DNA from: Eledone cirrhosa
Taxonomy: Eukaryota
Length of the DNA stretch: 64,000 nt
Assembly: GCA_964016885.1 (NCBI GenBank)
Contig: OZ024747.1
Span: forward strand, 38,192,001 to 38,256,000
Direction: 5' to 3'
Numbering within the stretch: position 1 is the first letter of the stretch; every line of letters begins with the position of its first letter. A program made the translations under genes and the position numbers. This document shows, piece after piece, positions 27,649 through 55,974 of this stretch. Below the pieces are notes generated by a model. The model saw only the letters and a program-made list of their open reading frames with translations, had not been told where the DNA came from and ran no database searches.

Positions 27649-28925
27649 CATCTCCACCTCTTCCTCGACGGTGATCCGGTGTGGTCGACGTTTGCTAGAC
27701 GAGGTTTTCCCCAGCTCGTCTCCTTGACGAAGCTGCAGTCCTGTGTCAAGCGAAGACAGAAAGGGAGCGCTTGGAGATTGGAATGTCTTCAAGCGATCAC
27801 AGCCCTCGACCAATCGGGCGATGCGATCGGTGGAAACTCCACCTTGGCGTTCTATAGAGGATTAGTGGAGGGAAAGAGTGACGACGTCCTTGCGGAAACG
27901 CTGGGCGTCAACGAAAATCAACTAGCCAATCTCTTCGGGAGAACTTTCGGGCCGGGGCCCATGGATAATTTCCAAAAATCCCTAGCCTGGCAGTGCTACC
28001 GGGGAGCTTTGCCAGCGCGGGATAAACTCTACAGGAATGGAATTTCCGTCAGCCGGGCCTGTCCGAGATGCGCACAGGGCGACGAAACAGTCCTAAACGC
28101 ACTCGTCCAGTGTCCAAGCATTGCTGACTTGTGGGTTTATGTCGAACACCTGCTGTCGCGTGTAAGACGGATCCGGCTATCAGCTGAGTCCATCGTGAGG
28201 ATTGCCCCGCCGTCCTTATCTGCCTGGTGGCTATGGCGAAAGAGAGCGTGTGGTGGACGTGTTTGAAAGGGCTGAAGACGAGCACTTACCTCTTCAGGTA
28301 TGCTCTGATTAATGTTTTCAAATTGCATTTGAAAAGGAGAATCAGGCTGGAGAGGGAATTACTCGCTTCCCAGCAATTTGTTGAAAGATGGGTGAGAGAG
28401 GAAATCATGGCCCGAGTGAATGGGGGGGCCTACTCTCAGTATGCGCCTGTAAATTGAAGGTGGTAAACTGGGAGAGGGCACTTGCCCTGGTGGTCAGGGT
28501 CACCATGACTTTTTTAATGGGCTTTCTACCACGATGGCTGTCGGAAGTTTCCACCCTATTGGGGAATTTTCCTTTGTTTCTGTTTTTGTCATCTCCTTTG
28601 TTTTTTTTCTTTACACGCAGAAATACCCATTTGTACAGTCTTGTATTGTTCTGTGTTATCCTTAATGTAATACTTTATGTCAACCCACGTGGTCAGGGTG
28701 GCCGTAGTCTTTTGTGTTGTTTTCACCTCGAGTAACCCTCGGAGGTTTTCCCCTTTTGGGGGAATTTTTGCCGTTTGAATTATTTTTTAATTTATTTTTT
28801 ACTCATTTCTATCTTCTTGTTATAACCTATTTATACGGCCCAAACCCCCTTTGTTTCGCCCTGTACCGTTCTGTGGCGTCTGTAATGTTTGTCTTCATGT
28901 TAGCCCTTGTGACCAATAAAGAAAC

Positions 28926-28926
<1 letters not shown>
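27649..28926 (+). mobile_element. Tx1-1: 5'-truncated L1/Tx1-clade non-LTR retrotransposon (ORF2 C-terminus plus two tandem 3' UTRs)
   Basis: Decayed ORF2 C-terminus with knuckle CPRCAQGDETVLNALVQC, homologous to 48893-49726. Stop at 28450-28452, AATAAA at 28915, (ATT)14 at 28927-28968. Confidence 0.9.
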
Positions 28927-28968
<42 letters not shown>

Positions 28969-29410
28969 TGTCTTCTGTTCGGAAGTCTTTTTGCTCGCTC
29001 CCAGTAAGTCGCTTTATTTACCTGTTATAATTATTTGTTGTTTAATTTTTCTTGTTGTCAAGGGGAAAATATAATATTTGGACTTTTTGGCCCAAATATT
29101 TGAACAATATTTGAACATTTTACTTTTGAAAAAAAAACAAAAAAAACAAGGCTGAGCCACGCCCCCAGCAATATGTTTCCTGTCGTGTGACAACGGCGTG
29201 AAAGTTGAGAGGAGGGTTACACAAATTGATACAACAAACACCACCACAAATAACGTGAACAAAGACAACACTGAGAACACTTATTTAAAAAAAATTACCA
29301 CACCAACTATAACAATAACAGCGACAACCAAAATACAGAACAAAAAAAATGCCAACACTGAAAATATAAGTAATAGCAATGGCAATTATTCAGATTTGTA
29401 ACATACAAAC

Positions 29411-30679
29411 ATGGATTTCCCGCCATTACCAACGTCGACATGTGTTAAAGCCGCTATACCCACCGCCACAATGTCAAAAAGAACAACCAACACCACTGAT
29501 ACCACCACCACCACAGCAACAACCGAAACAAAAAATAAATTATTTTCTCATGATATCGAAATGGATTCTCCGAAAATCGACTCTTCCACGCTATTGACAC
29601 CACCACCACCACAACTGAAACTAAAAATAATAATAACAAAAATAACAATAACAACAACAGCAACAATAAGAATAACAACAACACCAGCGCAAAACCAGTT
29701 GTCGCTTGCTAAAGCGGCAAAAAATGAAACGGTGGTGGTTAGCCAGGAAGAATTGAATGAAGCCAAGCGAATGGTAAAAAATATGGTTACAGGGTCAGCC
29801 TCACCCGCGCCAACTAATACCATGGAGCATCGGCGCCTATGCACCGTGTCATATCGGATGATAAATATTAAAACGCGCCGAGTGGAACGGGCATCCGAGT
29901 CCCAGATACAAAAAGCTTTGGTATATGTGTGGGCTCAAAAAACCCACACCACACGTGGGCAAAATTATGGAACCGTGGACGTGTTCTTTGCAGCCCCACA
30001 GGAATCCAGAGAGCACTCCATGGCCCCTTTAAAAAGTGACAAGTTCACACTCGTCCTCAGCTATTGTGGTCAGAGGCTGGTGAGGATCAGGGTGACCCAG
30101 GTTCCGCTGGCCATTGAAATTCCCTGGCTAATGGCTGCCGTCCTCTCCGACATCGAGGCCGACACTAAAGTAATTGAGGTGATACAAGTAAAGCAGGAGA
30201 ACTGGTCCGAATCTGGGATGGAGCTCCTGATCCAAGCGGACAAAAAGAACATACAGGAAATTCCAGAGGTGATAGACCTCAATGACGGCAGCCACCTCAC
30301 CGTAATCGTTGAGGGTAGAAGGCCTAGGTGTGTCGTTTGTGGCGAAGGAACCCACCTAAAGTCTTTCTCCACTCAGGCTAAAAAGTTGAGGTCACCTTTC
30401 CTACCCACCCCAGTGACTCAACCATCAAAACCAGCAGTAGAAATGGCAGCAACAACTGTAGCAGCAACAACCCCAGCAACACTAACAGCAACAGTAGCAG
30501 CAACAACCCCAGCAACTGTAGCAGCAACAACAGCAACAACTGTAGCAAAACCAACATCACCACTACCCACCGCGCCAGAATTAGCACCAGCGCCTCCACC
30601 ATCCACCAGGCCACAACCAACACCAACAAACAGTGAGAAGGGCGGAAAAACCAGCCTTCCCCGACAAGAAGTGAGGTAA
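29411..30679 (+). pseudogene. Tx1-2 ORF1 (gag-like; Thr/Asn-rich N-terminus, degenerate CCHC CVVCGEGTHLKSFS), internally deleted near the 3' end
   Basis: 422-aa ORF homologous to the ORF1 regions at 44448-46320 and 50287-52261. It lacks ~600 bp present in Tx1-4. The true start may lie upstream. Confidence 0.75.
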
Positions 30680-30714
30680 GTGGATTTTCCCATCTTTTTC
30701 CACTCCTTTTCAAC

Positions 30715-33621
30715 ATGACCTTACTCAGAATAGGTAGCATAAACGCGCATGGTCTGCGGTCGTCATGGCAGCAAGGCCACTTTCTCAACGACCTCAGGTC
30801 ACTAAACATAGATATGGTGGCTATCAGCGAGACCAGAATCTCCGAAGCATGAGTTCGCACCGATCTTCGGCGGATACGATGTATACGCATCTCCCAGCCG
30901 TCCAGGATCGTGGGGTGGGGGGGTGGGGTGGGGGTGGTGTTGCCGTGCTTTTTCGGAGAGGTTTGGATCTCGCCATACGGGCCATCTTCCTGGACCCAGA
31001 AGGTAAGTTGGTGGTGCTGGACGTGACCAGCGGAGACGGGCAAGCTTTCAGGCTAGTAGCCATCTACGGCCCAACAGGGGCAGGACGGCCAGATTTCTTC
31101 AGACGTCCAGAGACCTTTCTTGGAACGTCCCGCTCTTTAGTGTTAGTAGGCGACTGGAACGGGATCTTAGATGCAAGCTGGAATTATGTGAGGCTAGTAG
31201 ACAGGGCAAGAGGGTGTAAAAGCCTCAACAACCTGCTCAGACGTATTGAACTGTCTGACAGTTATAGACTGGATTATCCGAATGTGCCAATGTAGACATG
31301 GGCAAACCGCATCGGGTCATCCAGATCGTATTTAAATATGGTATGCTGTAGGGAAACAGATAAGGCTAGTGTAGGTTGTCCACAATTTAAAGTAGTCGAC
31401 TAAACGGACCACACATTTGTGATCTGTGAAGTTGACTTAGATAAATTCCATAGGCAAGTGCAGGCTACTGGAAGCTGCACGCGTCGTTCCCGGAGTTCAC
31501 AGCTTACAGAGACCGAATTAGCGAATTAGTTAAGCGTGCATTGACGGGTTCGATCAGCAACAACAGGTGGTGGTTTACCCTGTAACGGGCTTTTAGAGTA
31601 GAATCTATAAGGTTTAGCAAAGGAGTAGTGATAGAGGAAAATATTTAGAGTGAGAGTTAGTTAGAAAACTTGAGGCGTTTAGGACAGGCATCGCAACCGA
31701 CACGCTTGCGGCGAGATTGGCAGTCGACCAATTTTTCAACGCTAAGCATGAAGGCTGCGTTGTCAGAGTTAGAGCGCGTGCTCTAAGACACGAGGGGACG
31801 GAAGCCGTTCAATGGTCCCGGGTGGCGGAGGCGCGACGTGGCAACAAGTCCACAATTCGACTTTGCCTGATCAAAACGGGCGCATGTTGGTCGAACCCCT
31901 GCGGATAAGTGCGGCTTTTCAACAGTACTTTGCTCAATTGTTCATGAGCGGAGGGGGCAGGATCGGAGTATGGACTTCGGTGCATACCTCGACAGACTGC
32001 TGCGGCTCTCGACGACCGCAGCGCAGTGCTGCGAAAAGCCGATAAAAGCAGATGAAATACGGGAAGCGATGTCTGACTGCGCGAGGGGTAAATCGCCATG
32101 TTTGGATGGTCTGCTCTACGAGCTTTATGCGTATATGCCAGACTTGTTCGGCGACCTCTTGGAAGATGTCTACTGCAACTGTCAGCAGAACGGGAGCATT
32201 CACAGTTTTGAGAGCCGGGGAGCGGTAGCGCTCCTGAGACCCGAACAAGGGGGATGTTATATACAACTTCAGGCCCATAACTCTGCTAAACGCAGAGTTT
32301 CAGATTTTGGCCAAGGTGTTAGCAAAGAGATTGGCGTTTGTCGTCGGTGATCTGGGAGGAGAGGCGCAAACATGCACCATTTCGGACAGATCCATCCACG
32401 ACAACCTCCATCTCATGCGACACATTATAGAGAGGGTAGTTAAGGAACCTGGCACGGGTCAACTTGGATCAATCTAAAGCTTTGATAGGGTCGACCATCG
32501 GTACCTGACTGCGGTCCTCGAGGCGGCAGCCTTCGGGCCTGTTTTTAGGGCTAGATCGCTGCGATTCACAACAATATCTGCTCGATTCTGAGGGTGAATG
32601 GTCACCTGTCGCAGGCTTTCAGCATCATGCGCTCTGTCCGCCAGGATTGCCCCCTCTCGTCCCTGTTGTATGCACTGCCCCTAGCGCCGTTACTGCACAA
32701 CTTGGAGACGATGAGGGGTGTTCCACGCGAACATGGATGCGGGAGATCCGTGTCAGAATACGCCGACGACGTCACCGTGGTGGTGTCGAGCTCCAAACAC
32801 GTCCAGAAGATTGGCAGCGCTCTCAAGGAAAACGATGCGGTGACAGGAGCAAAGATAAACCAGGAAAAATCGGAGCTGCAGTCCTGGATCAGCAAAAGGA
32901 CGAAGGATAGCGCTTGGAAGCTGCAATGTCTCCAAACGCTCACCGCTCTCTACCAGCTGGGCACTATTATCGGTGGAACATCCACCTCAGCGTTCTATAG
33001 AGGGCTAGTGGAGGGAAAGAGCGACGAAAATCTCGGGGAGACCCTGAGCGTCGAAGACGATCAGCTATTCGCTTTCTTCAAGAGAACATTGAGACCGGGG
33101 ACAATGGACAACTTCCAGTAATCCCTGGACTGGCAGTTTTACCAGGGAGCGTTGCCGGTTCGGGATAAGCTCTACAGGCGCGGAGGTGCTGTCAGCTGAG
33201 CCTGTCCGAAATGCGCGCAGGGCGACGAAACCGACCTGCGCGCACTCCTTCAGTGCCCGAGGATTGCTGACTTGTGCAGCTATGTCGAACAGCTGCTGTC
33301 GCGTGTAGGACGTATCCGGTTATCGACTGAGTCCATTATGCAGATAACCCCACCATCCTCCTTTAAAGATAAGGAAGGACAGGCAGTTTTCATCTGCCTG
33401 GTGGCCATGGCGAAAGAGATTGTGTGGTGGACAAGGTTGAAAGGGTTGAAATCGGACACTTTCCTCTACGGCCAATCCCTGATTAATTTTTCAAGTTTCA
33501 CTTGAAGAGGAAAATCAGGGGGAAGAGTCAAGTGCTGTCTTCTACTAAGTTTGTTGAAAAGTGGATGAAAGTTACGAGTTTGGTCCGAGTGAACGGGCCC
33601 GCTCTGAGTATGCGCCTGTAG
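30715..33621 (+). pseudogene. Tx1-2 ORF2 (AP endonuclease + reverse transcriptase), with many stops/frameshifts and a ~490-bp deletion
   Basis: APE motifs IGSINA, AISET, GDWN; RT motifs KSPCLDGL, VRQDCPLS, YADD. Deletion junction at 32871. Confidence 0.9.
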
Positions 33622-33906
33622 ACTGAGGAGTGGGAAAACAGAGAGGGCGCTTGCCTTGGTGCTCAGGGTGGCAGTGGTCTCTTTTGTGTGGATTTCACCA
33701 CTAGTGACCCTCGGATGTTTCCCCTTTTGGGGGAATTTTTGTTGTTTGAACTTTTTCGGATTTCTAGCCCGATTTTGTTATAACCTGTTTACACAACCAA
33801 AACCCACATTGTACCGCCCTGTACTGTTCTTTGCCGTCTCTAATGTTTTTCTTCGTGTCAGCTCTTGTGGCCAATAAAAAAATCCTTATTATTATTATTA
33901 TTATTA

Positions 33907-34179
33907 CAGTTGCATTTATCTTGCTTTATGTTCATACGAGTTATCACCAAGTCACAACCAGTGACCTCAAGCGACAACAAGGTCCACCATGTTCAAGAAA
34001 GAACATACATACTCACACATGCATCTTTAGTGTTTAGACTTGTGATGTACTTATATTGACAGAATCTTCCTTAGTATATGGGCAGTTCCCATTAGTACTA
34101 TCTTTTGTATTTCTCCTATACGCGGGTTTCCTGGGATTTGCGATAAGTAATCATTAGACCCCTTAGGTATCATTCCCAC
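33907..34179 (-). mobile_element. DongB-1: 5'-truncated 3' end of a second R4/Dong-like family
   Basis: The - strand at 34179-34051 reads VGMIPKGSNDYLSQIPGNPRIGEIQKIVLMGTAHILRKILSI*, homologous to the RLE C-terminus of the 34289 ORF (LGTISKG...LQKACLLGTARTLRYVLNI*). About 145-bp 3' UTR, then (AAT)n. Confidence 0.85.
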
Positions 34180-34214
34180 ATTATTATTACATTATTATTA
34201 TTAATATTATTATT

Positions 34215-37200
34215 CCTTGAATCTCAGTCATTGATGTTGGTTAACTGGAAAGTCCGTTGGATTGAATATCAAGCCACTACCTGCAGCCTCAGATATTCAG
34301 GACGTATCGGAGGGTTCTTGCCGTTCCAAGCAAGCATGCCTTTTGAAGCGTTCCAAAAAGCGTGAAGGGGCCGATTTTCTTTAACCATCCCTGGAAACCT
34401 TTGGAGATAGTCCCCAGTGCGCCTATGACAATCGGGATCACTTTGACTTCATGGCAGTTCCAAATCCTTTTCACCTCCCACTTTAGGTCCTGGTATCGGT
34501 TAATTTTCTCCCTCTCCTTCTCTTGCACTCTCGTGTCGAACGGGCAGGCCACATCCACAATCAGGCACGATCTTTTTTCTTTGTCCACAACCACCAGGTC
34601 AGGTCTATTGTGTTCCAGTTTTTTGTCCGTCTGTATCCTAAAATCCCACAGCACCTTCACCTGACTGTTCTCCATCACCGCCTCTGGCCTATGCTCATAC
34701 CATTTCTCAGAATGTGGTAGATTGTTTACTTTGCACAGGTGCCAGTGGATCACCCTGCCCATCACATCGTGTCTCCAGCCCTTATAGTGGGTCTGGGCTA
34801 GGTGTTTACACTCGGACACAATGTGGGCCACAGTCTCCTCTCTCTCTCCACAGATCCTGCACAGTGGGCTAGCCTCCTCCTTGTAGATATGGTGCTTCAA
34901 CCACTTCGTTTTGAGGGCCTGCTCCTGCGCAGCCATTAGCATTCCTTCTGTAGCCTTTTTGAGGTCTCCTCTTCTCAACCAGTTCCATGTCTGTGGATCT
35001 CTAAATTCAGTTTTCTCAAAGAAGGTACTATGAAGGGATTTTCCCTTAAGGCTGCTCTTCCTCCTTGATGTTATTTCCTCCTTGGATATCCCCTGGCCTA
35101 CTGTCCCCTCCTTCAGTACAGCTCTGAGCATTGGCTCCTTACTATAGGTCACGTATTTGTATAGGTTGTTTTTCTCCATCTGAACACAGTCCTCTATGCT
35201 GATAAGACCTCTTCCACCCTCAGATCTCCTTAGGTAGAGTCTATCGACATCACTCCTCTTGTGGAACATGTTGTAGATAGTCAATAGCTTCCTAGTCTTC
35301 CTATCCATTTCTTTTTGTTCAGCAACATTCCATCTCAGAATTCCCGCACTGTACCTAATAATAGACACAGCTCGGGAATTTACTGCGCTTATGGCATTTC
35401 TGCTGTTCAGATGTGACTTCAATACGCTCCTTACTCTCCGAATGTATTCAGTTCTTAACAATTCCTTCATTTTTTTGTTCTTTATGCCATCAGCCTCCAG
35501 AACGCCCAAATACTTGTATCCTTCCTCAGAGTCAATTTCCTTTATCATCTCACCAGTTGGTATCTGGATCCCGTTACTTCTGCTCAACCTACCCCTCCTC
35601 ATCACAATGACTCCACATTTACCAATACCAAACTGCATACATATATCACTGCTGAAAATACGGACAGTGTCAACAAGCACATCCAACTCCTTCTCACTTT
35701 TCCCGAAGAGCTTAAGATCGTCCATGAAGAGGAGGTGATTGATGGTAAGCTCTCCCCTTCCCAACTTGTATCCTGCTCTCACTTTTCGCAGCATAATGGT
35801 CAAGGGCATCAGGGCAAGGACAAACAACAGAGGGGACAGGCTATCTCCCTGGAAGATACCTCTCTTGATCTTCACGCTTCCCAAGGATACTCCAGTTGAT
35901 GTCAACTCTGTCTCCCAGGACCCCATACTCCTGCCCAGCAACTGTCTGATGTTATCTGCCACCCTGAAGATCTCCAGGCTTTTGGTGATCCAGGAATGAG
36001 GCACCATGTCAAATGCCTTTCTGTAGTCTATCCATCCCATGGCAAGATCAGTGTGTCTCCTCCTGCAATTCCCCATTACCATCTTATCAATAAGCAACTG
36101 GTCCTTTGTACCACGTGACTTCTTTCGGCATCCTTTCTGTTCGTCCGGTAACAAGTTGTTTGTGTGGAGGTGATGGTAGATTTCCTCAGACACAATGCTC
36201 GTCAACAGTTTCCACATTACGGGCAGACATGTGATAGGTCTATAGTTGGTAACATCATTACCCTTGCTTCGGTCTTTCATTATCAGAACTGTGGTACCTT
36301 TTGTCAACCACTCTGGCACCTCACCCGACACCAAGCAGTCATTGAACATGGCCGTCAGCTTCGGGTGGAGGGATGTTAAATGTTTAATCCAATACCCCTG
36401 CACACCATCTGGGCCTGGTGATTTCCAGTTGGTTAGTTTTTTGGCTTGCCCCTTAAGAGTTTCAACTGTGATACTCAAATCAGTCTGTTGTTGTGCCTGC
36501 TCACCGATCTCCCTCTGTACTGTCTCAATCCACCCTGCCTGGGCATTGTGTCTAACATCCTGCTCCCATATTCCTCTCCAGAATGTTTTAGCTTGTTCCG
36601 CCCCAGGGATCAAGTCGTTGCCTCTTTCTTTCCCCTCAAGCTGTCCAAACAGCATCTTCTGGTTGTTGTCGAACATGCGGTTCTGTTTATACTGACTGAC
36701 TCTGTTCTCGTATCGCCTGATTTTGGCACTCTTTGCTACAATGCGTTGCTTCAATTCCTCTATGATAATATTTAGCTTTTTACTCCTAGTTTTGTATTTT
36801 ATTTCCAGTCTATTTTTAGTGCCTATGTTTTTTAGTGTCCCATTCACTAGTGACTCAAGCTTTCCTATGTCATTTCTCATTTCCCCGATTTGCCCACTCA
36901 GTCGCTTCTTCCACCACGGCTCTGCTCTTTCTTGTCTGTTGTTTCCTCTCGCTTTTATACCAAGTAGTTTCCTCACCGTATTTGCTGTTGCTTTGAGGAT
37001 ATTGTTGCACTGGTGAAGACTCCTCGCCTCAAGGTATGGGATGACTTTGTTTACCTTAGCTGTTGTTTCTTTTAACTTTTTCCTGTCTACAAATCTTAGG
37101 TTCATAGGTCTCCCACTATCATTGTTCAACTCATCTACCACTAAATTTAGGATGTCAACCGAATCTTGTCCTAGCCCGTCAGCATTCATCTCCTCAGTGG

Positions 37201-38063
37201 CCGTATCTCTGTTCCAGGTATTATTTATCTCAGTATTCAGATCATTGTCTGCTTCGGGTGGTTCCTCCGTTCTCAGGACCTCCTCACCTTCATTTCCCGC
37301 CGGCTCGCTTGTCTGGCATACTACACCCGCCATCTCCAAGCCATTCTCTCTGCTCAGTTCCTCCAGTTCCAGCTCGCTTATCCACCCATTAGTTCTTATT
37401 ACCCGAGCCTGCCCGGCCAATTTTTGTTCATCTAATTTAAATAAACCAATCTCGTTCCAGATGTTATGCATCCGTCTCCTGTAGCCCCTCTCCTTGGGGT
37501 TACGTTTCAGGTAACATTGCATAACAGTTCTATTCAATTCTTTCGTCCAGTTGGTTCTGGCCCCTTTCCTTCTTCTTCTTCCTCCAACATCAGCAGTATT
37601 TGGTTAACAGTCAGGTTCCTGCTGCTGAGCCAGGGGGCACCTGTTGGGTGAGAGTCTGTCACATGACGTTCTAGTCTCCATTTCACCGTTATTCGAACTG
37701 TTTATGTTCGATATTTAAACACTCTTATCGAGGATTGGCGAACGTATGTTTACATAGCCATCTGTGGATCCGCCATCCCACTTGGCCCTTGTGTGGCATT
37801 ATCACCACGCTGTATACGGACACACATAAACAAACAAACACACGGGCAGAAAGGGCCCCAAAAATGAATAAGCATAAGTTTCATTGTAATGTAGTATTCG
37901 AATGTCTGACTTAGTTTTTGTTTTTTAAGTTTTACTTTTTCCCCCCTCTTCTCTGTCCGTCCGCCTGCTTCTCTCTTCATTCTTATTTTCTTTACGTTTT
38001 CGGGGTTTCTTTTTTTTGTTTTTGTTTTTCTCTGTTTGATTTTCTCGTTTTTTTTTTTTTTTA
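34215..38063 (-). mobile_element. DongA-1: full-length R4/Dong-clade site-specific non-LTR retrotransposon
   Basis: Single RT-RLE ORF and a ~75-bp 3' UTR. Flanked by (ATT)n at 34180-34214 and 38064-38099, i.e. (TAA)n in element sense, the known Dong target type. Confidence 0.93.
34289..37537 (-). CDS. RT + CCHC + restriction-like endonuclease polyprotein (R4/Dong)
   Basis: 1082 aa uninterrupted: SPGPDG, YRPITCL, IDYRKAFDMVPH, QGDSLSP, LFMDD, CRICGEREETVAHIVSEC, RHD, RPDLVVVD...DVACPFD...EKINRYQDL. The likely original ATG at 37681 is cut off by an in-frame TAA at 37604-37606. Confidence 0.93.
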   Translation of the reverse strand: MNRTVMQCYLKRNPKERGYRRRMHNIWNEIGLFKLDEQKLAGQARVIRTNGWISELELEELSRENGLEMAGVVCQTSEPAGNEGEEVLRTEEPPEADNDLNTEINNTWNRDTATEEMNADGLGQDSVDILNLVVDELNNDSGRPMNLRFVDRKKLKETTAKVNKVIPYLEARSLHQCNNILKATANTVRKLLGIKARGNNRQERAEPWWKKRLSGQIGEMRNDIGKLESLVNGTLKNIGTKNRLEIKYKTRSKKLNIIIEELKQRIVAKSAKIRRYENRVSQYKQNRMFDNNQKMLFGQLEGKERGNDLIPGAEQAKTFWRGIWEQDVRHNAQAGWIETVQREIGEQAQQQTDLSITVETLKGQAKKLTNWKSPGPDGVQGYWIKHLTSLHPKLTAMFNDCLVSGEVPEWLTKGTTVLIMKDRSKGNDVTNYRPITCLPVMWKLLTSIVSEEIYHHLHTNNLLPDEQKGCRKKSRGTKDQLLIDKMVMGNCRRRHTDLAMGWIDYRKAFDMVPHSWITKSLEIFRVADNIRQLLGRSMGSWETELTSTGVSLGSVKIKRGIFQGDSLSPLLFVLALMPLTIMLRKVRAGYKLGRGELTINHLLFMDDLKLFGKSEKELDVLVDTVRIFSSDICMQFGIGKCGVIVMRRGRLSRSNGIQIPTGEMIKEIDSEEGYKYLGVLEADGIKNKKMKELLRTEYIRRVRSVLKSHLNSRNAISAVNSRAVSIIRYSAGILRWNVAEQKEMDRKTRKLLTIYNMFHKRSDVDRLYLRRSEGGRGLISIEDCVQMEKNNLYKYVTYSKEPMLRAVLKEGTVGQGISKEEITSRRKSSLKGKSLHSTFFEKTEFRDPQTWNWLRRGDLKKATEGMLMAAQEQALKTKWLKHHIYKEEASPLCRICGEREETVAHIVSECKHLAQTHYKGWRHDVMGRVIHWHLCKVNNLPHSEKWYEHRPEAVMENSQVKVLWDFRIQTDKKLEHNRPDLVVVDKEKRSCLIVDVACPFDTRVQEKEREKINRYQDLKWEVKRIWNCHEVKVIPIVIGALGTISKGFQGWLKKIGPFTLFGTLQKACLLGTARTLRYVLNI

Positions 38064-38099
<36 letters not shown>

Positions 38100-41430: not shown

Positions 41431-41444
41431 TTTTGTTTTTCAAG

Positions 41445-42180: not shown

Positions 42181-42187
42181 CTTATTA

Positions 42188-43953: not shown

Positions 43954-43970
43954 ATTATTATTATTATTAT

Positions 43971-44228
43971 AGTTTCATTTATCTTGCTTTATGATCATAC
44001 GAGTTATCACCAAGTCACAACCAGTGACCTGAAGAGACAACAAGGTCCGCCATGTTCAAGAAAGAACATACATACACACACATGCATCTTTAGGTGTTTA
44101 GACTTGTGATGTACTTATATTGACAGAATCTTCCTTAGTATATGGACAGTTCCCATTAGTACTATCTTTTGTATTTCTCCTATACGCGGGTTTCCTGGGA
44201 TTTGCGATAAGTAATCATTAGACCCCTT
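43971..44228 (-). mobile_element. DongB-2: second 5'-truncated 3' end of Dong family B
   Basis: About 9 differences over ~258 bp versus DongB-1 by eye. The - strand at 44228-44115 reads KGSNDYLSQIPGNPRIGEIQKIVLMGTVHILRKILSI*. Confidence 0.85.
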
Positions 44229-44447
44229 TATTATTATTATTATTATTATTGGCGACCTACGTAGGAAATCGTATTATCGTGAGCTCCGCAAAAGTTTGTC
44301 GTTTTCAGTTGTTTAAAATTGCCATTTATGGACATTTTTTATTGTTAACTGTGTATAAGTGCATATACATTGTTTTCTGATTGGGGCCTTGAGCCCAAAA
44401 TTTAAACTTTTATAATTATCAAACAAAAATTTCTTTGAAAAAAAATC

Positions 44448-46320
44448 ATGGACGACTCACAGTCACACCTTCCTCACAAACTAACACATCACACCGACAC
44501 CACCATTGTAAATATTACTACGTTTGCCAACACTAAAAATATAAGCAGTAGCAATAATTTAAATTTGTCTCACGCAGACATTCATTTCCCCCCTTTACCA
44601 TTGACTGCAGGTGTTGAAGCCGCCACCCCCACCATCACCACAGCGATAACAGAAACAAAAAAAAAAAAAATTATCTCGTGACATCGAAATGGATTCACCA
44701 AAATGGACTCTTCCACACCGAACACCACTGACGCCACCACTACAACCACAACTGAAACTAAAAATAACAATAACAAAAATAACGATAACAACAACAGCAA
44801 CAATAACAATGAGAATAAGAAAACCACCCTGTCTTTTGCCAGAGTAACAAAAAAGTGCGAAGCAATCCTGGTAACTCAGGAGGAATTAAAGAGAATGGTA
44901 AAGACGGGTGGGTACAGGGTCAGCCCCCCCCCCACACCTAATAAAATGGAGCATCGGCGCCTATGCACTGTGTCTTATCGGACGATTAACATAAAATCGC
45001 GCCGAGTGGAACGGGCATCCGAGTCCCAAATCCAAAAAGCTTTGGGACATGTGTGGGCAAAGGAAAACCACATCAGACGTGGGCAGAAATATGAAACCGT
45101 GGACGTGTTCTTTGAAACACCACAGGAGGCCAGAGAACACTCCATGGCCCCATTAAGAAGTGACGACTTCACACTCGTCCCAAGCTATTGTGGCCAGAGC
45201 CTCGTAAAGATCAGGGTGACTCACGTTCCACCGGCCATCGAAATTCCCTCGCTAATGGCTGCCGTCCTCGCCGGCATCGAGGCCAACACCAAGATAATAG
45301 AAATAGCGAAAGAAAAGCAGGAGGACTGGTCCGGAGCTGGGATGGAGCTCCTGATCCAAGCGGACCAAAAAAGCATTGAGGAGATCCCAGAAGTAATAGG
45401 CCTAGGTGTGACGTTTGTGGTGAAGGAACCCAACTAAGGGCTCTCTGCCCTCAGGCTAGAGGTTGAGGCCACCTCTCTTACCCACCCCAGTGACTCAACC
45501 ATCAACACCACCAGCAGCAGAAATGGCAACAACTGTAGCAGCAACAACAGAAGCAACTGTAACAGCAACAACCCCAGCAACAGTAGCAAATCCAACACCA
45601 CCACAACCCAACGCGCCAGAACTAGCACCAACGCCTACACCATCCACCAGGCCACAACAAAAACCAACGCCTGTGGAGGATTTTCCACTCCCCGACCTAT
45701 CGCAACTGGAGACAGATTGTGACGACGAGGTGTGGGAAACGGTATCTGGAAAAAAGAAAAAAAGAAAAAGAAAGCAAAAAAGAAAAAAATCGTCTTCCTC
45801 CAAATACAAAATACAGAGGGAAACAAATAAACTATCAAACAAAAAAGTTAGGACAGCTATGCCACCATCCACACCAGCATCACCAACCTCAACACCACAA
45901 ACACCAACACCATCACCATCATTAACCCCAATACCACCATCACCAACACCACAAAAGTCACCAAAAAGCGAAAAACAAACAAACCCACAACATACGCAAA
46001 CAAAACAAAACAACCAAAACGATACACACTACACAGCATTAAATTTGAACAACAACCAATTATTACACTACATCCAACACAACACCAGCATCACAGAAAC
46101 AGACTACAAAACAACCCCAAAGTTCACACGACCTCCTCACATACAAATCACTCGCATCACACAGAAAACGTACACGACACTAAAACAAAAATACCCCAAA
46201 GACATCGGAGACTTCCGACAAGCACTCTCCAGGAGGATTTATAAGGACATCCTTCCGGAGGAGGCCACAAGCAGTGAAAAGGATGAAGAAACCATCCTTC
46301 CTCTACAAGAAGTAATGTAA
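44448..46320 (+). pseudogene. Tx1-4 ORF1 (broken)
   Basis: Fragments 44448, 44703 and 45463. MEHRRLCTVSYR...RRVERASESQIQKAL is shared with Tx1-2. Out-of-frame knuckle CDVCGEGTQLRALC; basic tract KKKKRKRKQKRKK. Confidence 0.8.
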
Positions 46321-46354
46321 GTGGTCTTTCCCATCTTTTCCACTCCATTTCAAC

Positions 46355-49300
46355 ATGACCTCACTCAGAATAGGCAGCATAAATGCGCTTAGCTTGGGGT
46401 CGTCATGGAAGCAGGGCCACCTGTTCAACGACCTCAGGTCACTAAACATAGATGTAGTGGCCATCAGCGAGACCAGAATCTCCGAAGCACGGACCTTCGC
46501 ATCGATCTTCGGCGGCTGCGATGTGTACGCATCTCCCAGCCGTCCTGGATCGGCAAGTGGAGTTACTGTGCTTTTTCGGAGACGTTTGGATCTCGCCATA
46601 CAGGCCATCTTCCTGGACCCAGAAGGTAAGTTGGTGGTGCTGGACGTGACCAGCGGAGACGGGCAAGCTTTCAGGCTAGTGGCCGTCTATGCCCAGACAG
46701 GATCAGGGCCGCCTGATTTCTCCCGGCGTCTGGAAACCTTTCTTGGAACGACCCGCTCTTTAGTGTTAGTGGGCGACTGGAACGGGATCTTAGATGCACG
46801 CTGGGACTGTGTGGGATTAGCGGATAGGGGAGGAGGGTGCAATAGCCTTACCAACCTGCGCAGGGGTTTTGAACTGTCTGACAGGTACCGATTGGATTTC
46901 CCGACTGTGCCAATGAGGACTTGGACAAATCGCATAGGGTCATCCAGATCATATCTAGATAGAGTATTTTGTAGGGAAATAGATAGGTCTAGCATAGGCT
47001 GTCCACAATTCAAGATAGTCAGCTACACGGTCCACAAATTCGTGATTTGCGTGCTTGACTTAGATAGGCTTCATAGACGAGGAACCGGCTACTGGAAGCT
47101 AAACGCGTCCTTACCAGCGCGCAAGGCCTACAGGGACAGGATTAGCGAACTAGTTAAGGGGGCGTTGACAGGGGGCCATCGTCAACAACAAGTGGTGGTT
47201 TGCTCTGAAAATAGCGATTGGAATAGAGTCCATTAGGTTTAGTAAGGCTTTAGCAATAGAGAAAAATAGAGCAGAGGGAGAACTAGTTAGAAAATTAGAC
47301 GAAGCGCTTAGCAAAGGCATCGCGACCGACGTACTTGCGGCGAATTTGGCCCTTGACCAATCCTTCAATGCAAAGCACGAAGGCTGCGTTTTCAGAGCTA
47401 GGATGCGTGCTCTCAGACACGAGGGGACGAAAGCCGTCCAATGGGCCCGAGTGGCGGAGGCGCGTCGTGGCAACAAATCCACGATCCGGTCTTTGGTGGA
47501 CCACGACGGGCGCATGCTACTCGATCCCGGGAAAATGTGTGAAGCTTTTCAGCGACATCGCTCAGCTGTTCGGGGGCAGCGGCGGGCCGGATCAAGGGAT
47601 AGACTTTAGTGTCTACCTCGATGGACTGCCGCGGTTCTCGGCCACTGAGGCGGAGTGTTGCGAAAAGCCGATAACAGCCGCTGAAGTACGGGTGACAATG
47701 ACTGGCTGCACAAGGGGTAAATCGCCTGGTTTGGATGGTCTGCCCTATGAACTTTGCGTACACATGCCAGACTTGTTCGGAGGCCTCTTGGCGGATGTCT
47801 ACTGCAACTGGCAACAGAACAGGAGAATTGCCAGCTCTGTGAGACGAGGAGCGGTGGCGCTGCTGAGAAAGGTTCCGAACAAGGGGGATAACATAGATAA
47901 TTTCAGGCCCATAACTCTGCTAAACACAGAGTTCAAGATTTTGGCCAAGGTGCTAGCAAAGATGTTGGCGCTTGTCGTTGTTTGTCTGGTGGGAGAGGCG
48001 CAGACATGCGCCATTCCCGACAGATCCATCCACGACAACCTCCACCTCATGCGATACATCGTAGAGAGTGTAGCTAGAGAACCTGGCACGGGTGGGACCT
48101 TGATCAATTTAGATCAGTCGAGAGCTTTCGATAGGGTCGACCATCGTTACCTAGCGGTAGTCCTGAGGGCGGCTGCTTTGGGGCTCGTCTTCAGAGGCTG
48201 GATCGCTGCCATACACAGCGACATCTTCTGTGTGGTGAGAGTGAACGGTCACCTTTCGGAACCGTTCAACATCATGCGCTCGGTCCGCCAAGGATGTTCT
48301 CTCTCGTCCCTCTTATTGACTCTCGAGCAATTACTGCACAAACTGGAGAGGTTGAGGGGGATCCCGCGCGAACTAGCACGCGGAAGATCTGTGTTAGCAT
48401 ATGCAGACGATAACACCGAAGTGGTGTCGAACGCCAAACGCATCGAGGCGATCGGCACTACACTAAGAGAATACAATGATCAACCGGGAAAAGTCAGTGG
48501 GTCTGCAGCTCAGCACCTGGAGAGGCAGGTCCATGCCGTCCAACAGCGTAGTCGGGCGCTTGACGGACGGACCGGTTAAATTGCTAGGGGTCTGGTTCGG
48601 TCCAGACCTCCAGACGTACAAAAACTGGGACGTGCTCACGAGCAGGGTGGCTTCTCTCACCCAGAAATGGGCGGAGAAGAAGCTATCCCTGAAAGGTCGA
48701 GCAGAGGTGGCTAACGGGTACATCGCGTCCGTCATCTACTACCGCCTGACGGTCGTACCTTGTCCTAAGCAAAGCTTTTGGTGGAAGGGACGCGCTCCGA
48801 TGGTCAGGCTGTCCATCTGCTGTCAACACCCGCTACGTGGAATGCTGGGTATGCCGTGGCTGATGATGCGCAGCCACGTGCCCAGGCTACGACATCTCCA
48901 CCTCTTCCTCGAGGGTTATCAGGTGTGGTCGCCGTTTGCTAGACGCGTCTTTCCCCAGCTCGTCTCCTTGACGGAGCTGCAGTCCTGGGACAAGCGGAGT
49001 CCGAGAGGGAGCGCTTGGACACTGGAATGTCTTCAGGCGCTCACAGCCCTCGACCAATCGAGCAATGTGATCGGTGGAAACTCTACCTTGGCGTTCTATA
49101 GAGGATTAGTGGAGGGGAAGAGCGACGACGTACTTGGGGAAACTCTAGGCGTCGACGAAAATCAACTAGCCAATCTCTACGGTAGAACTTTCGGGCCTGG
49201 GCCTATGGATAACTTCCAGAAATCCCTGGCCTGGGCAAGCAGTGCTACTGAGGAGCTTTGCCAGTTCAGGATTAACTCTACAGGCATGGAAGTACCGTCA

Positions 49301-49726
49301 GCCGGGCATGTCCGAGATGCGTACAGGGCGACGAAACCGTCCCGCACGCACTCGTTCAGTGTCCGAGCATTGCTGACTTGTGGGTTTATGTCGAACACCT
49401 GCTGTCGCGTGTAGGACGGGTCCAGCTATCAGTTGAGTCCATCGTGAGGATTGCGCCGCCCTCTTCCTTTAGCCGGGAAGGGCAGGCAATTTTTATCTGT
49501 CTGGTGACCATGGTGAAAGAGATAGTATGGTGGACACGTTTGAAAGGGCTGAAGACGAGCACTTACCTCTTCGGTGATGCCCTGATTAACTTTTTCAAAT
49601 TTCATTTGTATAGGAAAATCAGGGTAGAAAGGGAAGGTGCTCTCTTCCCAGCATTTTGTTGAAAGATGGGTGAGAGAAGCAAGAATGGCCCGAGTGAATG
49701 GGCCTTCTCTGAGTATGTGTCTGTAA
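46355..49726 (+). pseudogene. Tx1-4 ORF2 (APE + RT + knuckle), frameshifted
   Basis: IGSINA, DVVAISET, GDWN, SYLDRVF, YWKLN, SPGLDGLP, NFRPITLLN, LDQSRAFDRVDH, VRQGCSLS, AYADD. Confidence 0.93.
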
Positions 49727-50286
49727 ATTAAAGGTGAAAAACTGGGAGAGGGCACTTGCCCTGGTGGTCAGGGTCACTGTGGCTTTTTAATGGGCTTTCT
49801 CCACGAATGTCCCTCGGAAGTCCCCCCCCCCCTATTGGGGAATTTTTTCATTGTTCTATTATTACATCCTCTGTTTCTTGTTTTTTACACGCAGAAATGC
49901 CCATTTCTACCGCCCTGTATTGTCTTGTACTGTCCTTAAAGTCTACTTTATGTAGACTCTTGTGGTTAATAAAGAAAGCATTATTATTATTATTATTATT
50001 ATTATTGGTTGGTGAAGCCACGCTTCTTATCGCCTCCAGTCTTTTTCAACGTTTTACCTCTTTTTCAACCGTTCTAAACCTTTTATTCAAGTTTTAAATT
50101 TGATAAAAGTTTAGAAGAAGTGACCCACCTAATACAGGGCTTCACTAGTAAATAATACGGCACCCCTTTACGGGGTGTCGTATTCGTATTTGTGTAAAAC
50201 AATTTTTGAAAAATTTCAACATTTGATAACACAAAAAAGAGAGAGAGCGTTGTCAGACAACACAGAGAGAGGGAGACTTTATCAGC

Positions 50287-52261
50287 ATGTCAACAAGACA
50301 GCGTTCCAGCGGAGGTAAATATAAACGAAAATATTACAAAGTAAAAAAAGATTGTTACAGATTTAAAATTAACAAATATTTCTAACACAAACAACACCAA
50401 CAATAACACCAACAACATCACCAACAACAACACCAAAAATAACAGCGGTAAAGTCGAGAACGACAATAACAAAAATAACAGCGGTAAGGTCGAGAACGAC
50501 AATAACAAAAATAACAGCGGTAAGGTCGTGAACGACAATAACAATGACAATAACAACAGCCACAACAACAATAATAGTAGGAACAGGTATCAACAAAAAC
50601 AACAATAATAACAACAGCCACAATAACAGTAACAGCAGCAACAGTATCAACGAAAACAACACCAACAACTGTACCAGCGAAAACAACAACACTGACACCG
50701 ATACCTGTAATAGCGACCTCAGCACCACCAGTAAGACCAGTAGCGGCAGCAATAGTTGTGGTGCTGAAAAAGGGACCACTTCTTTTGCAGGTGTCGCCCG
50801 AAATATCGAGACAGTGTTAGTCACAGAGGAGGAGATGGCAGTCGCAAGGGCCATGGGGACAAGAAGCGCAAATAGAGTTTCCCTGAAACCTCCACCCGAT
50901 TTTTTCAAGGACCAGCAGCTACGAACGGTGACTTACCGCACCGTAAGAAAAATCTCACATCGAGTGGAGAGAGCCACGGAGGCTCAAATCCAAAAGGGCT
51001 TGGGGTGCATCTGGGCACGCAAAACCCGAGGCAGAAAGTACGCCACAGTAAACGTACTTTTCGCCCCCCCCCCCCCAGAAAGCAAAGTCTCACTCTTTGG
51101 AAACCCTTAAAAGTGAGGAGTTTGTCTTGGTGCCCTCCTACTGCGGGCAGAAAATTGTGAGGGTCAAAGTGACCCAGGTCCCACCCAACGTGCTCATACC
51201 TTGGCTGGCCGCGTCTGTCCTTGCTGGAATTGAGAACAGGGCGACCATGCTGCAAGTAGAAAAAATAGGGAGAGAGAACTGGTCAGGTATAGGCATGCAA
51301 ATGCTTATACAAACTGACCAGGAATGTATCGAGGTTATCCCCGATATCATAGACTTTGAGGAAGAACTCCAACTCCCTATAAGTGTAGAAGGAAGACGGC
51401 CAAAATGTTATCTCTGTGGATCGAAATGTCACCTCAGGGCCTTTTGCCCGCAGAAGACACCGAAGAGGGCCCCTCTCCTTCCAATACCTGGTCCGCTGCT
51501 ACCAAGAGCAGGACAGGCAACAAACGAAGAAGCCCTTTCCACGGTGAGTAGGAGGGCAACGTTCGTAGCACCCGTACCAAGGCCACGGATAACTAAAGCA
51601 GCATCATCAGTAGCGGCAACACCAATAGCTACATTTGAAATAGCTACACCAGCAACAACATTGCCGAAGAGGGCTCCACTACCACCACCAACAGCCGTGG
51701 AGCACATACCCCTCCCAGACGCCACAGAATCCGACATGGAGTTTGAGGCGGGAGTGACGTGGCAAACAGTCTGCCACAAAAAAACAAAAAATAAAAAAAT
51801 CCTTAGATTCACCCTCCAAATGCGAAGGCATACAAAGAGGGGTAAAGGCAGCAAGGAAACTTGCAGCAACACCACCACAAACACCAACAACGCAAACACA
51901 AGACACACAAACCAAACAGCAACAAGAAGAAAACGGCAACAAAATCACCCCTCCCCCCCAAAAGTACACAGCCATAAACATAGCAAAAAAAGAACTCATA
52001 AAATATATAAAGCAGCACACAGACATCACGGAAAAAAATGACTACACCCCACCAACACCAAGAACTCTCCCGACAAACATAAGCATCATCGAAATCTCAA
52101 TAGAACAACACAAACCTTTAAAACAAAAATTCCCCAACGCAGTTGGTGACTTCAGAGGGACGGTTACCAAGATGATTTACACTGACATCCTCTTGGAAAC
52201 ACCAATGACCAGCGAAAGGGACGGTTCTACTGTCCCTTCACCACACGAACAAGGTAAGTGA
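50287..52261 (+). pseudogene. Tx1-5 ORF1 (broken) with CCHC knuckle CYLCGSKCHLRAFC
   Basis: Fragments 50544 and 51097 are homologous to the other ORF1s but more divergent. Start approximate. Confidence 0.75.
50435..50542 (+). repeat. 3 x 36-bp tandem repeat in the ORF1 N-terminal region
   Basis: Unit aaaaataacagcggtaaggtcgagaacgacaataac (KNNSGKVENDNN in one frame). Confidence 0.9.
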
Positions 52262-52293
52262 CCCTTTCTCATTTGCCCCGTTTCTCATCCAAC

Positions 52294-55200
52294 ATGGCTG
52301 TACTCAGGATAGGCAGTATAAATGCACGTGGCCTGGGGTCATATTGGAAGCAGGGTCACCTGCTCAATAACCTCAGGTCACTAAACATAGATGTGGTGGC
52401 CATCAGTGAAACCAGAATCTCCGAGGCACGGGCCTTCGCACCGATCTTCGGCGGCTACGATGTATACGCATCTCCCAGCCGTCCAGGATCGGGGGGAGGG
52501 GTTGCCGTCCTTTTTCGGAGAAGCTTGGATCTCGCGATACGGGCCATCTTCCTGGACCCAAAAGGTTAGTCGGTGGTGCTGGACGTGACCGGCAGCGAAG
52601 GTAATGCTTTCAGGCTAGTAGCCGTCTACGCCCCAACAGGGGCAGGACGGCCAGATTTCTTCAGACGTCTAGAGACCTTTCTTGGAACGTCCCGCTCTTT
52701 AGTGTTAGTGGGCGACTGGAACGGTATCTTGGATGCACGCTTGGATCGTGTAGGGCTAGTGGATAGAGGAGGAGGGTGTAAGAGCCTCACCAACCTGCTC
52801 AGACGTTTTGAACTGTCTGACAGGTATCGACTGGATCGCCCGAATGTGCCAATGTGGACATGGACAAACCGCATCGGGTCATCCAGATCATATATAGATA
52901 GGGTATTCTGCAGGGAACTAGATAAGGCTAGTATAAGTTGTCCACAATTAAAAATAGTCGACTACACAGACCACAAATTTGTGATCTGTGAGATCGACAT
53001 AGACAGACTTCATAGATAAGGGCCTGGTTACTGGAAGCTGAACGCGTCTTTCCCGGCGCGCAAGGCCTACAGAGACCGGATTAGCGTATTAGTTAAGTGG
53101 GCGTTGACGGGAGCGGTCGTCAACAACAGGTGGTGGTTCGCCCTGCAAAGGGCAATTAAAGTAGAGTCGATTAGGTTTAGCAAAGGAGTATTGATAGAGG
53201 AAAATAGAGTAGAGGGAGGGCTAGTCAGAAAGCTAGAAGAGGCGTTTAGGACAGGCATCGCAACCGACGTTCTAGCTGCGAGATTGGCACTCGACCAATT
53301 CTTCAACGCAAAACACGAAGGCTGCCTTGTCAGAGCTAGAGCGCTTGCTCTGAAACACGAGGGGACAAAAGCCGTCCAATGGGCCCGGGTGGCAGAGGCG
53401 CGACGTGGTAATAAAGCCACAATTCGGTCTTTGTCTGACCAACACGGGTGCTTGATGCTCGAACCCGAGCGGATGTGTGAAGCTTTTCAGCAGCACTTTG
53501 CTGAACTGTTCGGGAGCTGCGGCGGCTCGGATCGGGACATGGACTTCCGTGCATACCTCGACGGACTGCCTCGGCTCTCGACGACCGCAGCACAGTGTTG
53601 CGAAAAGCCAATAACAGTCGGTGAAATACGGGAAGCGATGGCTAACTGCGCAAGAGATAAATCGCCAGGTTTAGATGGTCTGCCCTACGAGCTTCATGCA
53701 TTTATGCCAGACTTGATCGGTGATCTCTTGGCAGACGTCTACTGCAACTGGCAGCAGAACGGGAGCATTGCCAGTTTTGTGAGTCGAGGAGCAGTGGCGC
53801 TGCTGAGAAAGGATCCGAACAAGGGGGATGTTATTGATAATTTCAGGCCCATAACTCTGCTAAACGCAGAGTTCAAGATTTTGGCCAAGGTGTTAGCAAC
53901 GAGGTTGGCGCTTGTCGTCAAGGGTCTGGTGGGAGAGGCGCAGACATGCGCCATCCCGGACAGATCCATACACGACAACCTCCACCTCATGCGATACATC
54001 ATAGAGAGGGTGGTTAAGGAACCTGGCAAGCGTGGGACCCTGATCAACTTGGATCAATCCAAAGCATTCGATAGGGTCGACCATCGGTACCTGGCGGCGG
54101 TCCTTGAGGCAGCCGGTTTCGGGTCCGTTTTCAGGCGTTGGATCGCAGCAATGTACAGCGATATCTGGTCAGTTGTGAGGGTGAACGGTCAGCTGTCGCA
54201 GCCGTTCAGCATCATGCGCTCAGTCCGCCAGGGGTGTCCCCTCTCGTCCCTCTTGTACGTATTGGCTCTCGAGCCGTTACTGCACAAAATGGGGGCAATG
54301 ACGGGCGTCCCACGCGAACTAGGATGCGAGAAATCCGAGTCGGCTTACGCTGACGACGTCACCGTGGTGGTGTCGAGCACCAGACACGTCCAGATGCTCG
54401 GCACCGCTCTCAAGGAATACGAAACGGTGACAGGAGCAAAGATAAACCAGGAAAAGTCGGTGGGCTTGTAGCTAGGCACCTGGAGAGGCAAGTCCATGCC
54501 GTCCGACAGCGTCGTGGGGCGTTGGACGGACGGACCGGTTAAATTACTCGGGGTCTGGTTCGGACCGCACTTCCAGATGGAGAAAAACTGGAACGAGGTG
54601 ACGAGCAGGGTGGCCTCCCTCACCCAGAAATAGGCTGAGAGGAAGCTGTCCCTGAAAGGCCGGGCGGAAGTGGCGAATGCGTACATCGCATCCGTCATCT
54701 GCTACCGCCTCACCGTCGTCCCTTGCTCCAGCCCAACTCTAAGCAAAATGGAGCGCCTCCTTTTCCGCTTTTTGTGGAAGAGACGCGCTCCCATGGTCAG
54801 ACGATCCATCTGCTGTCAACACCCGTTGCGTGGAGGACTGGGCATGTCATGGCTGATGATGCGCAAAATGCGCTGAGGCTGCGGCATCTCTGGTGAACGG
54901 GTGTGGTCGCCGTTCGCCAGGAACATTTTCCCACAGCTCGTCTCCTTGACGGAGCTGCAGTCCTGGGTCAGAAAAAGACCGAGGGATAGCGCTTGGAAAC
55001 TGGAATGTCTCCAGGCGCTCACTGCCCTCTCCCAGTTGGGCATCAGAATTGGTGGAACATCCACCTCGGCGTTCTATAGAGGACTAGTGGAGGGGAAGAG
55101 CGACGACGTTTTCGGAGAGATCCTGGGCGTCGAAGAAGATCAGCTGCTTGTTCTCTTCGGAGAACTTTCAGCCTGAGGCCTATGGATAACTTCCAAAAAT

Positions 55201-55630
55201 CCCTGGCCTGGCAGAGCTACCGGGGAGCGCTGCCGGTTCGAGATAAGCTCTACAGGCACGGAAGTGCCGCCAGCCGAGCCTGTCCGAGATGCGCGCATAG
55301 CGACGAAACCGTTGTGCCCACACTCGTTCAGTGCCCGAGCATTGCTGACTTGTCGACTGAGTCCATTGTGCAGATGGTCTCGCCGTCTTCCTCTGAGGAG
55401 GAAGGGCAAGTTGTTTTCATCTGCCTGGTGGCCATGGCGAAAGAGATTGTGTGGTGGACAAGGTTAAAAGGATTAAAGACAAACACTTTCCTCTTCGGCG
55501 AATCCCTGATTAACTTTTTCAAGTTTCACTTGAAGAGGAAAATCAGGGTGGAGAGGCGAGTGCTGCTTTCTAGCAAGTTTGTTGAAAGGTGGGTGAATGT
55601 AGCGAGAATGGTCTGAATATACGTCTGTAG
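52294..55630 (+). pseudogene. Tx1-5 ORF2 (APE + RT + knuckle), several stops/frameshifts
   Basis: IGSINARGL, GDWN, SYIDRVF, YTDH, SPGLDGLP, LDQSKAFDRVDH, VRQGCPLS, AYADD, CPRCAHSDETVVPTLVQC. Confidence 0.94.
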
Positions 55631-55921
55631 TTTGAGAGATGGAAAAATTGAGAGAGGGCGCTTGCCCTGGTAGCCAGGGTGGCCGTGGTCTTTTGTGTGG
55701 TTTTCGCCACGAGTAACCCTCGGAGGGTTCCCCCCTATTGGGGAATTTTTCATTGTTTCACTTTTCATTTTATTGTTTATATATATATATATATGTTTTA
55801 TGTCCTTTTTCTTTTCTTATATAAATAATAAAAATATTTACACGCACAAAACCCACATCGTACCGTCCTGTTCCGTCTATGATGTTTTTCTTGATGTCAG
55901 CCCTTGTGGCCAATAAAGAAA

Positions 55922-55974
<53 letters not shown>

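Follow-up and report, generated by a model that had tools for sequence, protein, structure and literature searches.

The stretch of DNA analysed here, hereafter the window, is a 64-kb segment of the genome of the octopod Eledone cirrhosa (assembly GCA_964016885.1, contig OZ024747.1, positions 38,192,001 to 38,256,000 of the forward strand), and the coordinates below are positions in this window unless another locus is named. Between 27649 and 55974 it contains an island of retrotransposons strung together by ATT microsatellites, with five Tx1-like copies on the + strand and, on the - strand, four pieces of Dong-like elements, which encode a reverse transcriptase (RT), a CCHC zinc knuckle and a restriction-like endonuclease (RLE). 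As a preliminary description made from the letters alone had claimed, tracts are present at 28927, 33886, 34180, 38064, 43954, 44228, 49980 and 55924, and all eight read ATT on the + strand; AAT tracts of at least four units are absent from 27649-55974. The assignment of the five Tx1 bodies to + and of the four Dong pieces to - was likewise borne out, by Pfam domains together with alignments.

From left to right, the island begins with T1 (27649..28926, +), a 5'-truncated 3' fragment whose 5' junction is without ATT and whose (ATT)14 tail (28927..28968, +) is at the same time the 5' flank of T2 (28969..33885, +), a near full-length copy with broken open reading frames (ORFs) and an internal deletion near 32872. 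A (TTA)7 tract (33886..33906, +) is common to the tail of T2 and that of a 5'-truncated Dong-B 3' fragment (33907..34179, -), a member of a family whose copies are 98-99.6% identical. An interrupted ATT tract (34180..34213, +) leads to Dong-A1 (34214..38047, -), a young RLE element with an open frame of 1104 aa (34289-37603, -; RT, CCHC, PD..D) and a 5' untranslated region (UTR) that ends early at an A-rich hotspot. Beyond an (ATT)12 tract (38064..38099, +) lies Dong-A2 (38100..42181, -), which belongs to an older subfamily (87% identity to A1) and is near full length with a degenerate ORF; the segment at 41450-42180 (-) was also considered as an inverted Tx1 5' piece, a candidate that was ruled out since it is the Dong-A2 5' UTR. 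A short tract, TTATTATT (about 42182..42189, +), joins the 5' end of Dong-A2 to the 5'-truncated T3 (42189..43953, +), which is followed by an (ATT)5 tract (43954..43970, +), a second Dong-B 3' fragment (43971..44227, -) and a (TTA)7 tract (44228..44250, +). The right part consists of two full-length copies, T4 (44251..49979, +), with broken ORFs and an (ATT)9 tract behind it (49980..50006, +), and T5 (50007..55923, +), which has a CCHC knuckle in ORF1 near 51406, a broken ORF2 with apurinic-type endonuclease (APE), RT and zf-RVT, a 3' hairpin with a CUUGU loop, and the terminal (ATT)17 tract (55924..55974, +). Outside the island, a 5'-truncated short interspersed element (SINE; 56431..56539, +) carries a Tx1-type CUUGU hairpin at its 3' end. 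Upstream of T1 there is a CAA-rich duplicated segment (27100-27640), for which no match in other fetched loci was found among the matches listed, and positions 1-25045 are occupied by a satellite with a 28-bp unit, about 888 copies and a strong G skew, which apparently extends at least 10 kb further upstream (it was also seen in locus L282).

The preliminary description had counted nine insertions from three families, linked by eight tracts. The eight tracts are there and ATT does join the families, but the ninth, short tract at about 42182-42189 had been missed and three families are too few, given that the five Tx1 copies share 73-86% identity in their common 3' part, their 5' ends being unrelated. 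Identity is 96.9% between the two Dong-B pieces but 83.6% between the Tx1 copies adjoining them; hence the Dong-B pieces represent independent insertions, and a local duplication of the Tx1-ATT-DongB module was ruled out by these unequal identities. More broadly, the array might have arisen by local duplication, as an assembly artefact or by passive build-up at microsatellites, which is the kind of origin that a satellite at least 35 kb long and only 2.6 kb away and the resemblance between the two Tx1-ATT-DongB modules would suggest. The identities just given speak against such an origin, as does the absence of a comparable association for an RTE family of the same genome (below). Moreover, arrays built like the island, itself a long one, are common in the genome, recurring on many contigs and even in a stretch picked at random (L256, which held a Dong array). 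We therefore regard this origin as very improbable.

APE (PF03372), RT (PF00078) and zf-RVT domains are all represented among the five + elements, single copies being truncated or broken. Their ORF2 has an N-terminal APE, an RT and a C-terminal CCHC, which is the architecture of the L1 group, and its best match in the PDB is human L1 ORF2p (E 4.5e-55 over 16-878). A natural Tx1-like copy of 1137 aa has the GDWN, YLDR, TDH, YADD and CCHC motifs; the zinc knuckle of ORF1 is CCHC in T5 and degenerate in T2, and none was found in T4. The sole named close relative at the protein level is from Argonauta hians (55% identity over part of ORF2). In a tree that holds no named Tx1, R4 or Dong row, ORF2 groups (87/90) with proteins P0043 and P0046, whose endonuclease loop is similar to the Tx1L graft of PDB 2v0r, and P0050 likewise scores higher on 2v0r than on the L1 endonuclease (L1-EN). 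Proteins P0004-P0038, about 42% identical to the Tx1 ORF2 described here, form its sister group (100/100); two metagenome scans for the flanks of this sister clade returned nothing, a protein-cluster look-up gave generic APE-RT clusters only, and NCBIfam was uninformative. Judged by architecture and by this tree of unnamed proteins, the + elements likely belong to the Tx1 clade. The Dong elements, on the other hand, have a single ORF with RT followed by CCHC and a PD..D RLE and no APE, their best PDB matches are R2 proteins, and they sit in a (TAA)n target in their own sense. The two long - elements of the window (Dong-A) are of this RT-CCHC-PD..D type, and the two short - pieces come from the 3' ends of another Dong-like family (Dong-B), the ORF of which is 34.5% identical to that of Dong-A; the two families are sisters in the tree (100/100). 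Natural copies with catalytic motifs and long open frames were found for the ATT-associated Tx1 elements (ORF2), as in L219, and for Dong-B, as in L229.

When the 3.0-Gb genome was searched with Tx1 5' ends that themselves held no ATT, a tract abutted the first base in 30/30 fetched loci of the T5 family (the window copy included), with the sequence outward of the tract differing between loci, and by-eye reading found an ATT 5' flank in 29/30 loci of the T4 family and 29/30 of the T2 family. Genome-wide, 74 of 80 exact T5 5' ends are preceded by TTATTATT in phase. In a tabulation that counts a tract at the junction when it has three or more units, full-length Tx1 5' junctions were ATT in 58 cases and without a tract in 3 (n = 61), and truncated ones were ATT in 15 and without a tract in 27 (n = 42); the reverse AAT tract was found at none of these 103 junctions. 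Eight loci were left out of the tabulation, two of them by mistake (the non-window loci L094 and L103); double counting of a few overlapping loci is possible. For comparison, three or more ATT units directly precede 0.22% of randomly chosen oriented positions, as measured on 40 stretches spaced evenly and totalling 400 kb. The junctions without a tract are in part two-unit tracts, reference gaps, chimeras, deletions and later insertions, not every case being accounted for. That is, dispersed Tx1 copies do carry the ATT 5' flanks that the preliminary description had expected of them, and at the 74/80 and 58/61 junctions above the share exceeds the >20% of flanks taken as evidence of target preference by Kojima 2015. 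In addition, one Tx1 fragment (L169), lying at the ATT motif of the Dong-A2 5' UTR described below, shows a 13-bp non-repetitive duplication beginning with ATTATT. Three side observations may be added. In T2, a further Tx1 family and Dong-A1, the first base of every full-length 5' end behind the tract is G; a GCTC...GTAAG motif lies within 50 nt of the 5' end in several unrelated families and could, as a guess, be a promoter element or a splice donor; and another long interspersed element (LINE), with a 954-aa open frame, is inserted into a T5 copy at a point with no ATT tract nearby (L185:2784-5645).

The Dong families show the mirror image of this pattern. Full-length Dong 5' junctions had AAT in 8 cases and no tract in 4, truncated ones had AAT in 65 and no tract in 49 (n = 114), and ATT was found at 0/126. 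For the Dong-A1 family, whose loci were gathered with a 5' UTR query since the words of its 3' end are too common, AAT is the nearest upstream tract in 30/30 loci; the window copy has an upstream stop that is absent from 19/20 readable young copies. The A-rich point at which the UTR of the window copy is truncated recurs in 6/30 loci of this family (window 38047-38063; L285, L286, L292, L295, L298), possibly as a microhomology hotspot or because these copies form a non-autonomous subfamily. Two Dong copies carry an inverted 5' segment (L276:7648-8181, and L226 near 3206-3311 on -) like that left by L1 twin priming, which is unusual for an RLE element. A three-unit ATT motif in the Dong-A2 5' UTR (window 41627-41635; L151-L180) is itself a recurrent insertion site of SINEs and Tx1 fragments, the SINE insertions being in the ATT sense in all but one. 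A hepatitis delta virus (HDV)-like ribozyme has been shown at the 5' end of B. mori Dong (PMC3774820). At the Tx1 and Dong 5' ends studied here there was no Rfam ribozyme match, and a crude HDV-like descriptor gave 0/16, with matches no higher than in shuffled sequences, the descriptor being without positive-control validation.

Counting from the tracts outward, in 271 loci kept after 70 were dropped in strict de-duplication, the canonical polarity relative to ATT (Tx1 +, SINE +, Dong -) holds in 568/571 contacts on 509 distinct tracts; the orientation of dispersed copies, also at issue in the preliminary description, is accordingly non-random. Tracts flanked by Tx1 at one end and by Dong at the other number 73, and the two elements are oppositely oriented in all of them. 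The three exceptions are inversions: in two Dong copies it is the 5' piece that is inverted, and the third is an inverted 5' fragment of Tx1 that retains its own ATT flank. The polarity is also kept where one side of the tract only matches a known element, and thus it does not result from selecting pairs. As a control, the RTE family has ATT tails in 0/29 copies and mostly (ATGT)n or (AT)n ends, which rules out ATT tails as a general trait of LINEs in this genome. The RTE family is itself very young, with 40 matches 100% identical over 251 bp, and has microsatellites in its 3' UTR (L261, L281, L314-L343).

The tails of an abundant SINE harbour many of the Tx1 copies; this SINE occurs at about 145 copies/Mb (58 3' ends in the 400 kb of random stretches). 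Its target-site duplications (TSDs) are mostly 10-21 bp long and start with ATTAT in 18/19 readable cases at random loci; with offsets allowed, ATT lies within the first six bases in 21/26. These duplications suggest a short motif, ATTAT(T), as the core target. SINE-tract contacts have the same polarity as Tx1 in 69/69 cases. The last 30 nt of the SINE align with Tx1 3' ends, and both share a hairpin with a stem of 4 bp and the loop CUUGU, three of the four pairs having changed on both sides. The 3' end of RTE is unrelated to the SINE tail, and RTE was ruled out as the SINE's partner on this basis; from the shared 3' end, Tx1 is likely the partner LINE, and the SINE family represented in the window was likely mobilised by these Tx1 elements. 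The SINE head, putatively tRNA-derived, shows A-box-like and B-box-like motifs by eye and has no Rfam tRNA match; the Deu/Nin-domain label is one that we presume for this SINE.

These data also bear on whether the 5' ATT is brought along by the element, either as a leader transcribed from a tract upstream or through a template jump, so that the 5' signal would be partly self-made. The junctions between ATT and the initial G are very precise, as such a process would have it, and at three junctions (L014, L080, L093) 6-15 units lie between SINE and Tx1 although the upstream flank of the SINE is without an ATT tract; because the tract there is longer than this flank permits, tails or later slippage must add units. 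However, leaderless truncated copies are flanked by ATT as well (15/42, against the 0.22% background), the sequence past the tract is diverse between loci, and the SINE TSDs place ATTAT at the site before insertion. An element-borne origin of the 5' tract hence appears rather unlikely to us.

The random stretches also held related Tx1 copies with (ATCT)n ends (L244, L247, L276, L344-L381). The tails of this sister family are TATC in 20/30 cases and ATT in 0/30, and its 24 visible truncated 5' junctions comprise 16 TATC, 1 GATA, 7 without a tract and 0 ATT, against a TATC background level of 0.73%. Readable duplications are 12 and 18 bp long, and the family builds tandem arrays of its own. While ORF2 of the TATC and ATT families is about 55-70% identical, their endonuclease hairpins differ, being NRIGSS in the majority of ATT-family copies (32 matches, overlapping loci included) and NNGGTS, NRSGTS or NRNGSS in TATC copies. 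The hairpin loop has been found to influence the target choice of L1-EN but not to be modular alone (PMC1950540). A single-sequence AlphaFold model of the endonuclease domain was unusable (predicted local distance difference test, pLDDT, 37). We infer from these tails, junctions and proteins that target choice within the Tx1 radiation has switched at least once between ATT and TATC.

Taken together, it is probable that the island consists of independent target-primed insertions into ATT repeats, with the APE elements entering in the ATT sense and the RLE-bearing Dong elements in the TAA sense, the latter difference likely reflecting nicking and priming on opposite strands. In target-primed reverse transcription, the nick falls in the strand opposite to that of the element's sense, and the nicked strand then serves as primer on the RNA 3' end (PMC1919474); from this geometry and the fixed polarity it follows that priming would start from the (AAT)n strand for Tx1 and the SINE, and for Dong from the (ATT)n strand. 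In such a scheme, the Tx1 protein would nick the (AAT)n strand after ...ATAAT and prime on the (AUU)n tail of its RNA, and Dong would nick the (ATT)n strand and prime on (UAA)n. Each insertion would duplicate part of the tract and add its tail, providing new targets for all families, and the SINE, borrowing the Tx1 protein by means of the common 3' hairpin, would seed new tracts.

Several observations weigh against this scheme of independent insertions into ATT or limit how far it can be taken. Tracts on both sides of insertions, which the preliminary description had attributed to each of them, are seen genome-wide, but the 5' junction of T1 (27649) has none. No tract of three or more units is present at 27/42 truncated Tx1 junctions and at 49/114 truncated Dong junctions. 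Many of the tract contacts are with tails that the elements made themselves, and elements guided the choice of most loci, the 40 random stretches being unbiased; for these reasons the 5' junction counts are the stricter test. TSDs are unreadable inside pure tracts, and the position of the nick made by autonomous Tx1 is thus drawn mostly from the SINE and L169. On the side of the SINE, the hairpin covariation (0.51, versus 0.23 when shuffled) comes from 16 hand-picked rows of related ends and is a score rather than a probability, and RTE is the one other LINE excluded as partner.

Alternatively, polarity might be set mainly by pairing between the RNA tail and the primer strand, with endonucleases that loosely prefer A/T and nicks that become productive only if the exposed strand anneals to (AUU)n or (UAA)n. 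It would fit with this that tails equal flanks in every family, the TATC family included, that SINE targets require merely about ATTAT, and that the hairpin loops of the ATT and TATC families are only one to three residues apart. Yet pairing alone leaves the exact ATT phase at full-length Tx1 5' junctions unexplained, endonuclease swaps between TRAS1 and SART1 determine the target (PMC1919474), and the Tx1L endonuclease is sequence-specific (PMC1950540). We consider tail pairing as the main determinant a possible but doubtful explanation. Strand choice may be set by the endonuclease, by tail pairing or by both, as the two mechanisms can act together.

Most parts of this system have counterparts elsewhere. 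A TAA target is recorded for Dong in silkworm, mosquito and snail (PMC3812793), and Dong, DongAg and DongBg have, like the elements here, a single RT-CCHC-RLE ORF and (TAA)n at the 5' side in their own sense (PMC3774820); there is no essential difference from our elements, except that here two families with 34.5% protein identity use one target. Kibi at (TC)n, Koshi at (TTC)n and the crocodilian Tx1 elements at (TTCC)n/(TTTC)n are likewise Tx1-clade APE elements in T-rich microsatellites (PMC4494074), whereas the repeats here are (ATT)n and, for the sister family, (TATC)n, rather than (TC)n or (TTC)n, and the host is an invertebrate; the likeness noted here is one of function. The preliminary description could match the co-nesting of ATT-specific Tx1 with Dong to no described system, and we found none for this combination in the literature searched either; the sharing of one repeat in opposite orientations is, however, known from TRAS1Bm and SART1Bm, two non-LTR (long terminal repeat) families inserted in opposite directions in (TTAGG)n (PMC7265360), and the novelty of our case is reduced for this reason. 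Both of these are R1-clade APE elements at telomeres, while here APE and RLE elements meet at dispersed microsatellites. The SaTar arrays of guayule and rice are, as here, modular, mostly non-nested and composed of unrelated elements joined by microsatellites, but those elements are MULE DNA transposons at (TA)n, and the words 'orientation' and 'polarity' are absent from the accessible text (PMC5907723). A SINE that follows the target preference of a Tx1 element has been reported for SINEU and Tx1-Mar, although the 3' end of SINEU-1 is matched by no LINE according to that paper (PMC4494074), whereas the SINE here carries the Tx1 3' hairpin; in bivalves, 3' stem-loops are common to SINEs and their L2 and CR1 partners (PMC4824008). 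Dong-R4 is abundant and young in Octopus vulgaris (PMC13282606), and octopus papers list L1-Tx1 and Dong-R4 families, with no target analysis in their accessible portions. Neither ATT- or TATC-targeted Tx1, nor the sharing of a repeat by APE and RLE elements on opposite strands, nor a Tx1-tailed SINE was found in the literature, with Repbase and Kojima and Fujiwara 2004 not covered. Hence, known components are combined here in a new way, with two apparently new Tx1 targets and a likely SINE partner.

In conclusion, it is about evenly balanced, in our judgement, whether octopods host a so far undescribed retrotransposon community partitioned by microsatellites, in which Tx1 would have switched between ATT and TATC through a few endonuclease residues and would be, through the CUUGU hairpin, the stringent partner of a SINE that ranks among the most abundant in the genome, and Dong would use the opposite strand of the ATT tracts, the three together making much of the ATT microsatellite and of the polarised arrays of transposable elements. 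The two unrelated endonucleases on one duplex provide a naturally matched set for the question of endonuclease versus RNA tail, to which the two Tx1 proteins that are about 55-70% identical and act on different repeats add further. In addition, a probable partner LINE can now be named for a SINE present at about 145 copies/Mb. Finally, our results offer a cause at the sequence level for the octopod hotspots of transposable elements, which have been mapped but left unexplained in the annotation of O. vulgaris (PMC13282606, in its accessible part).

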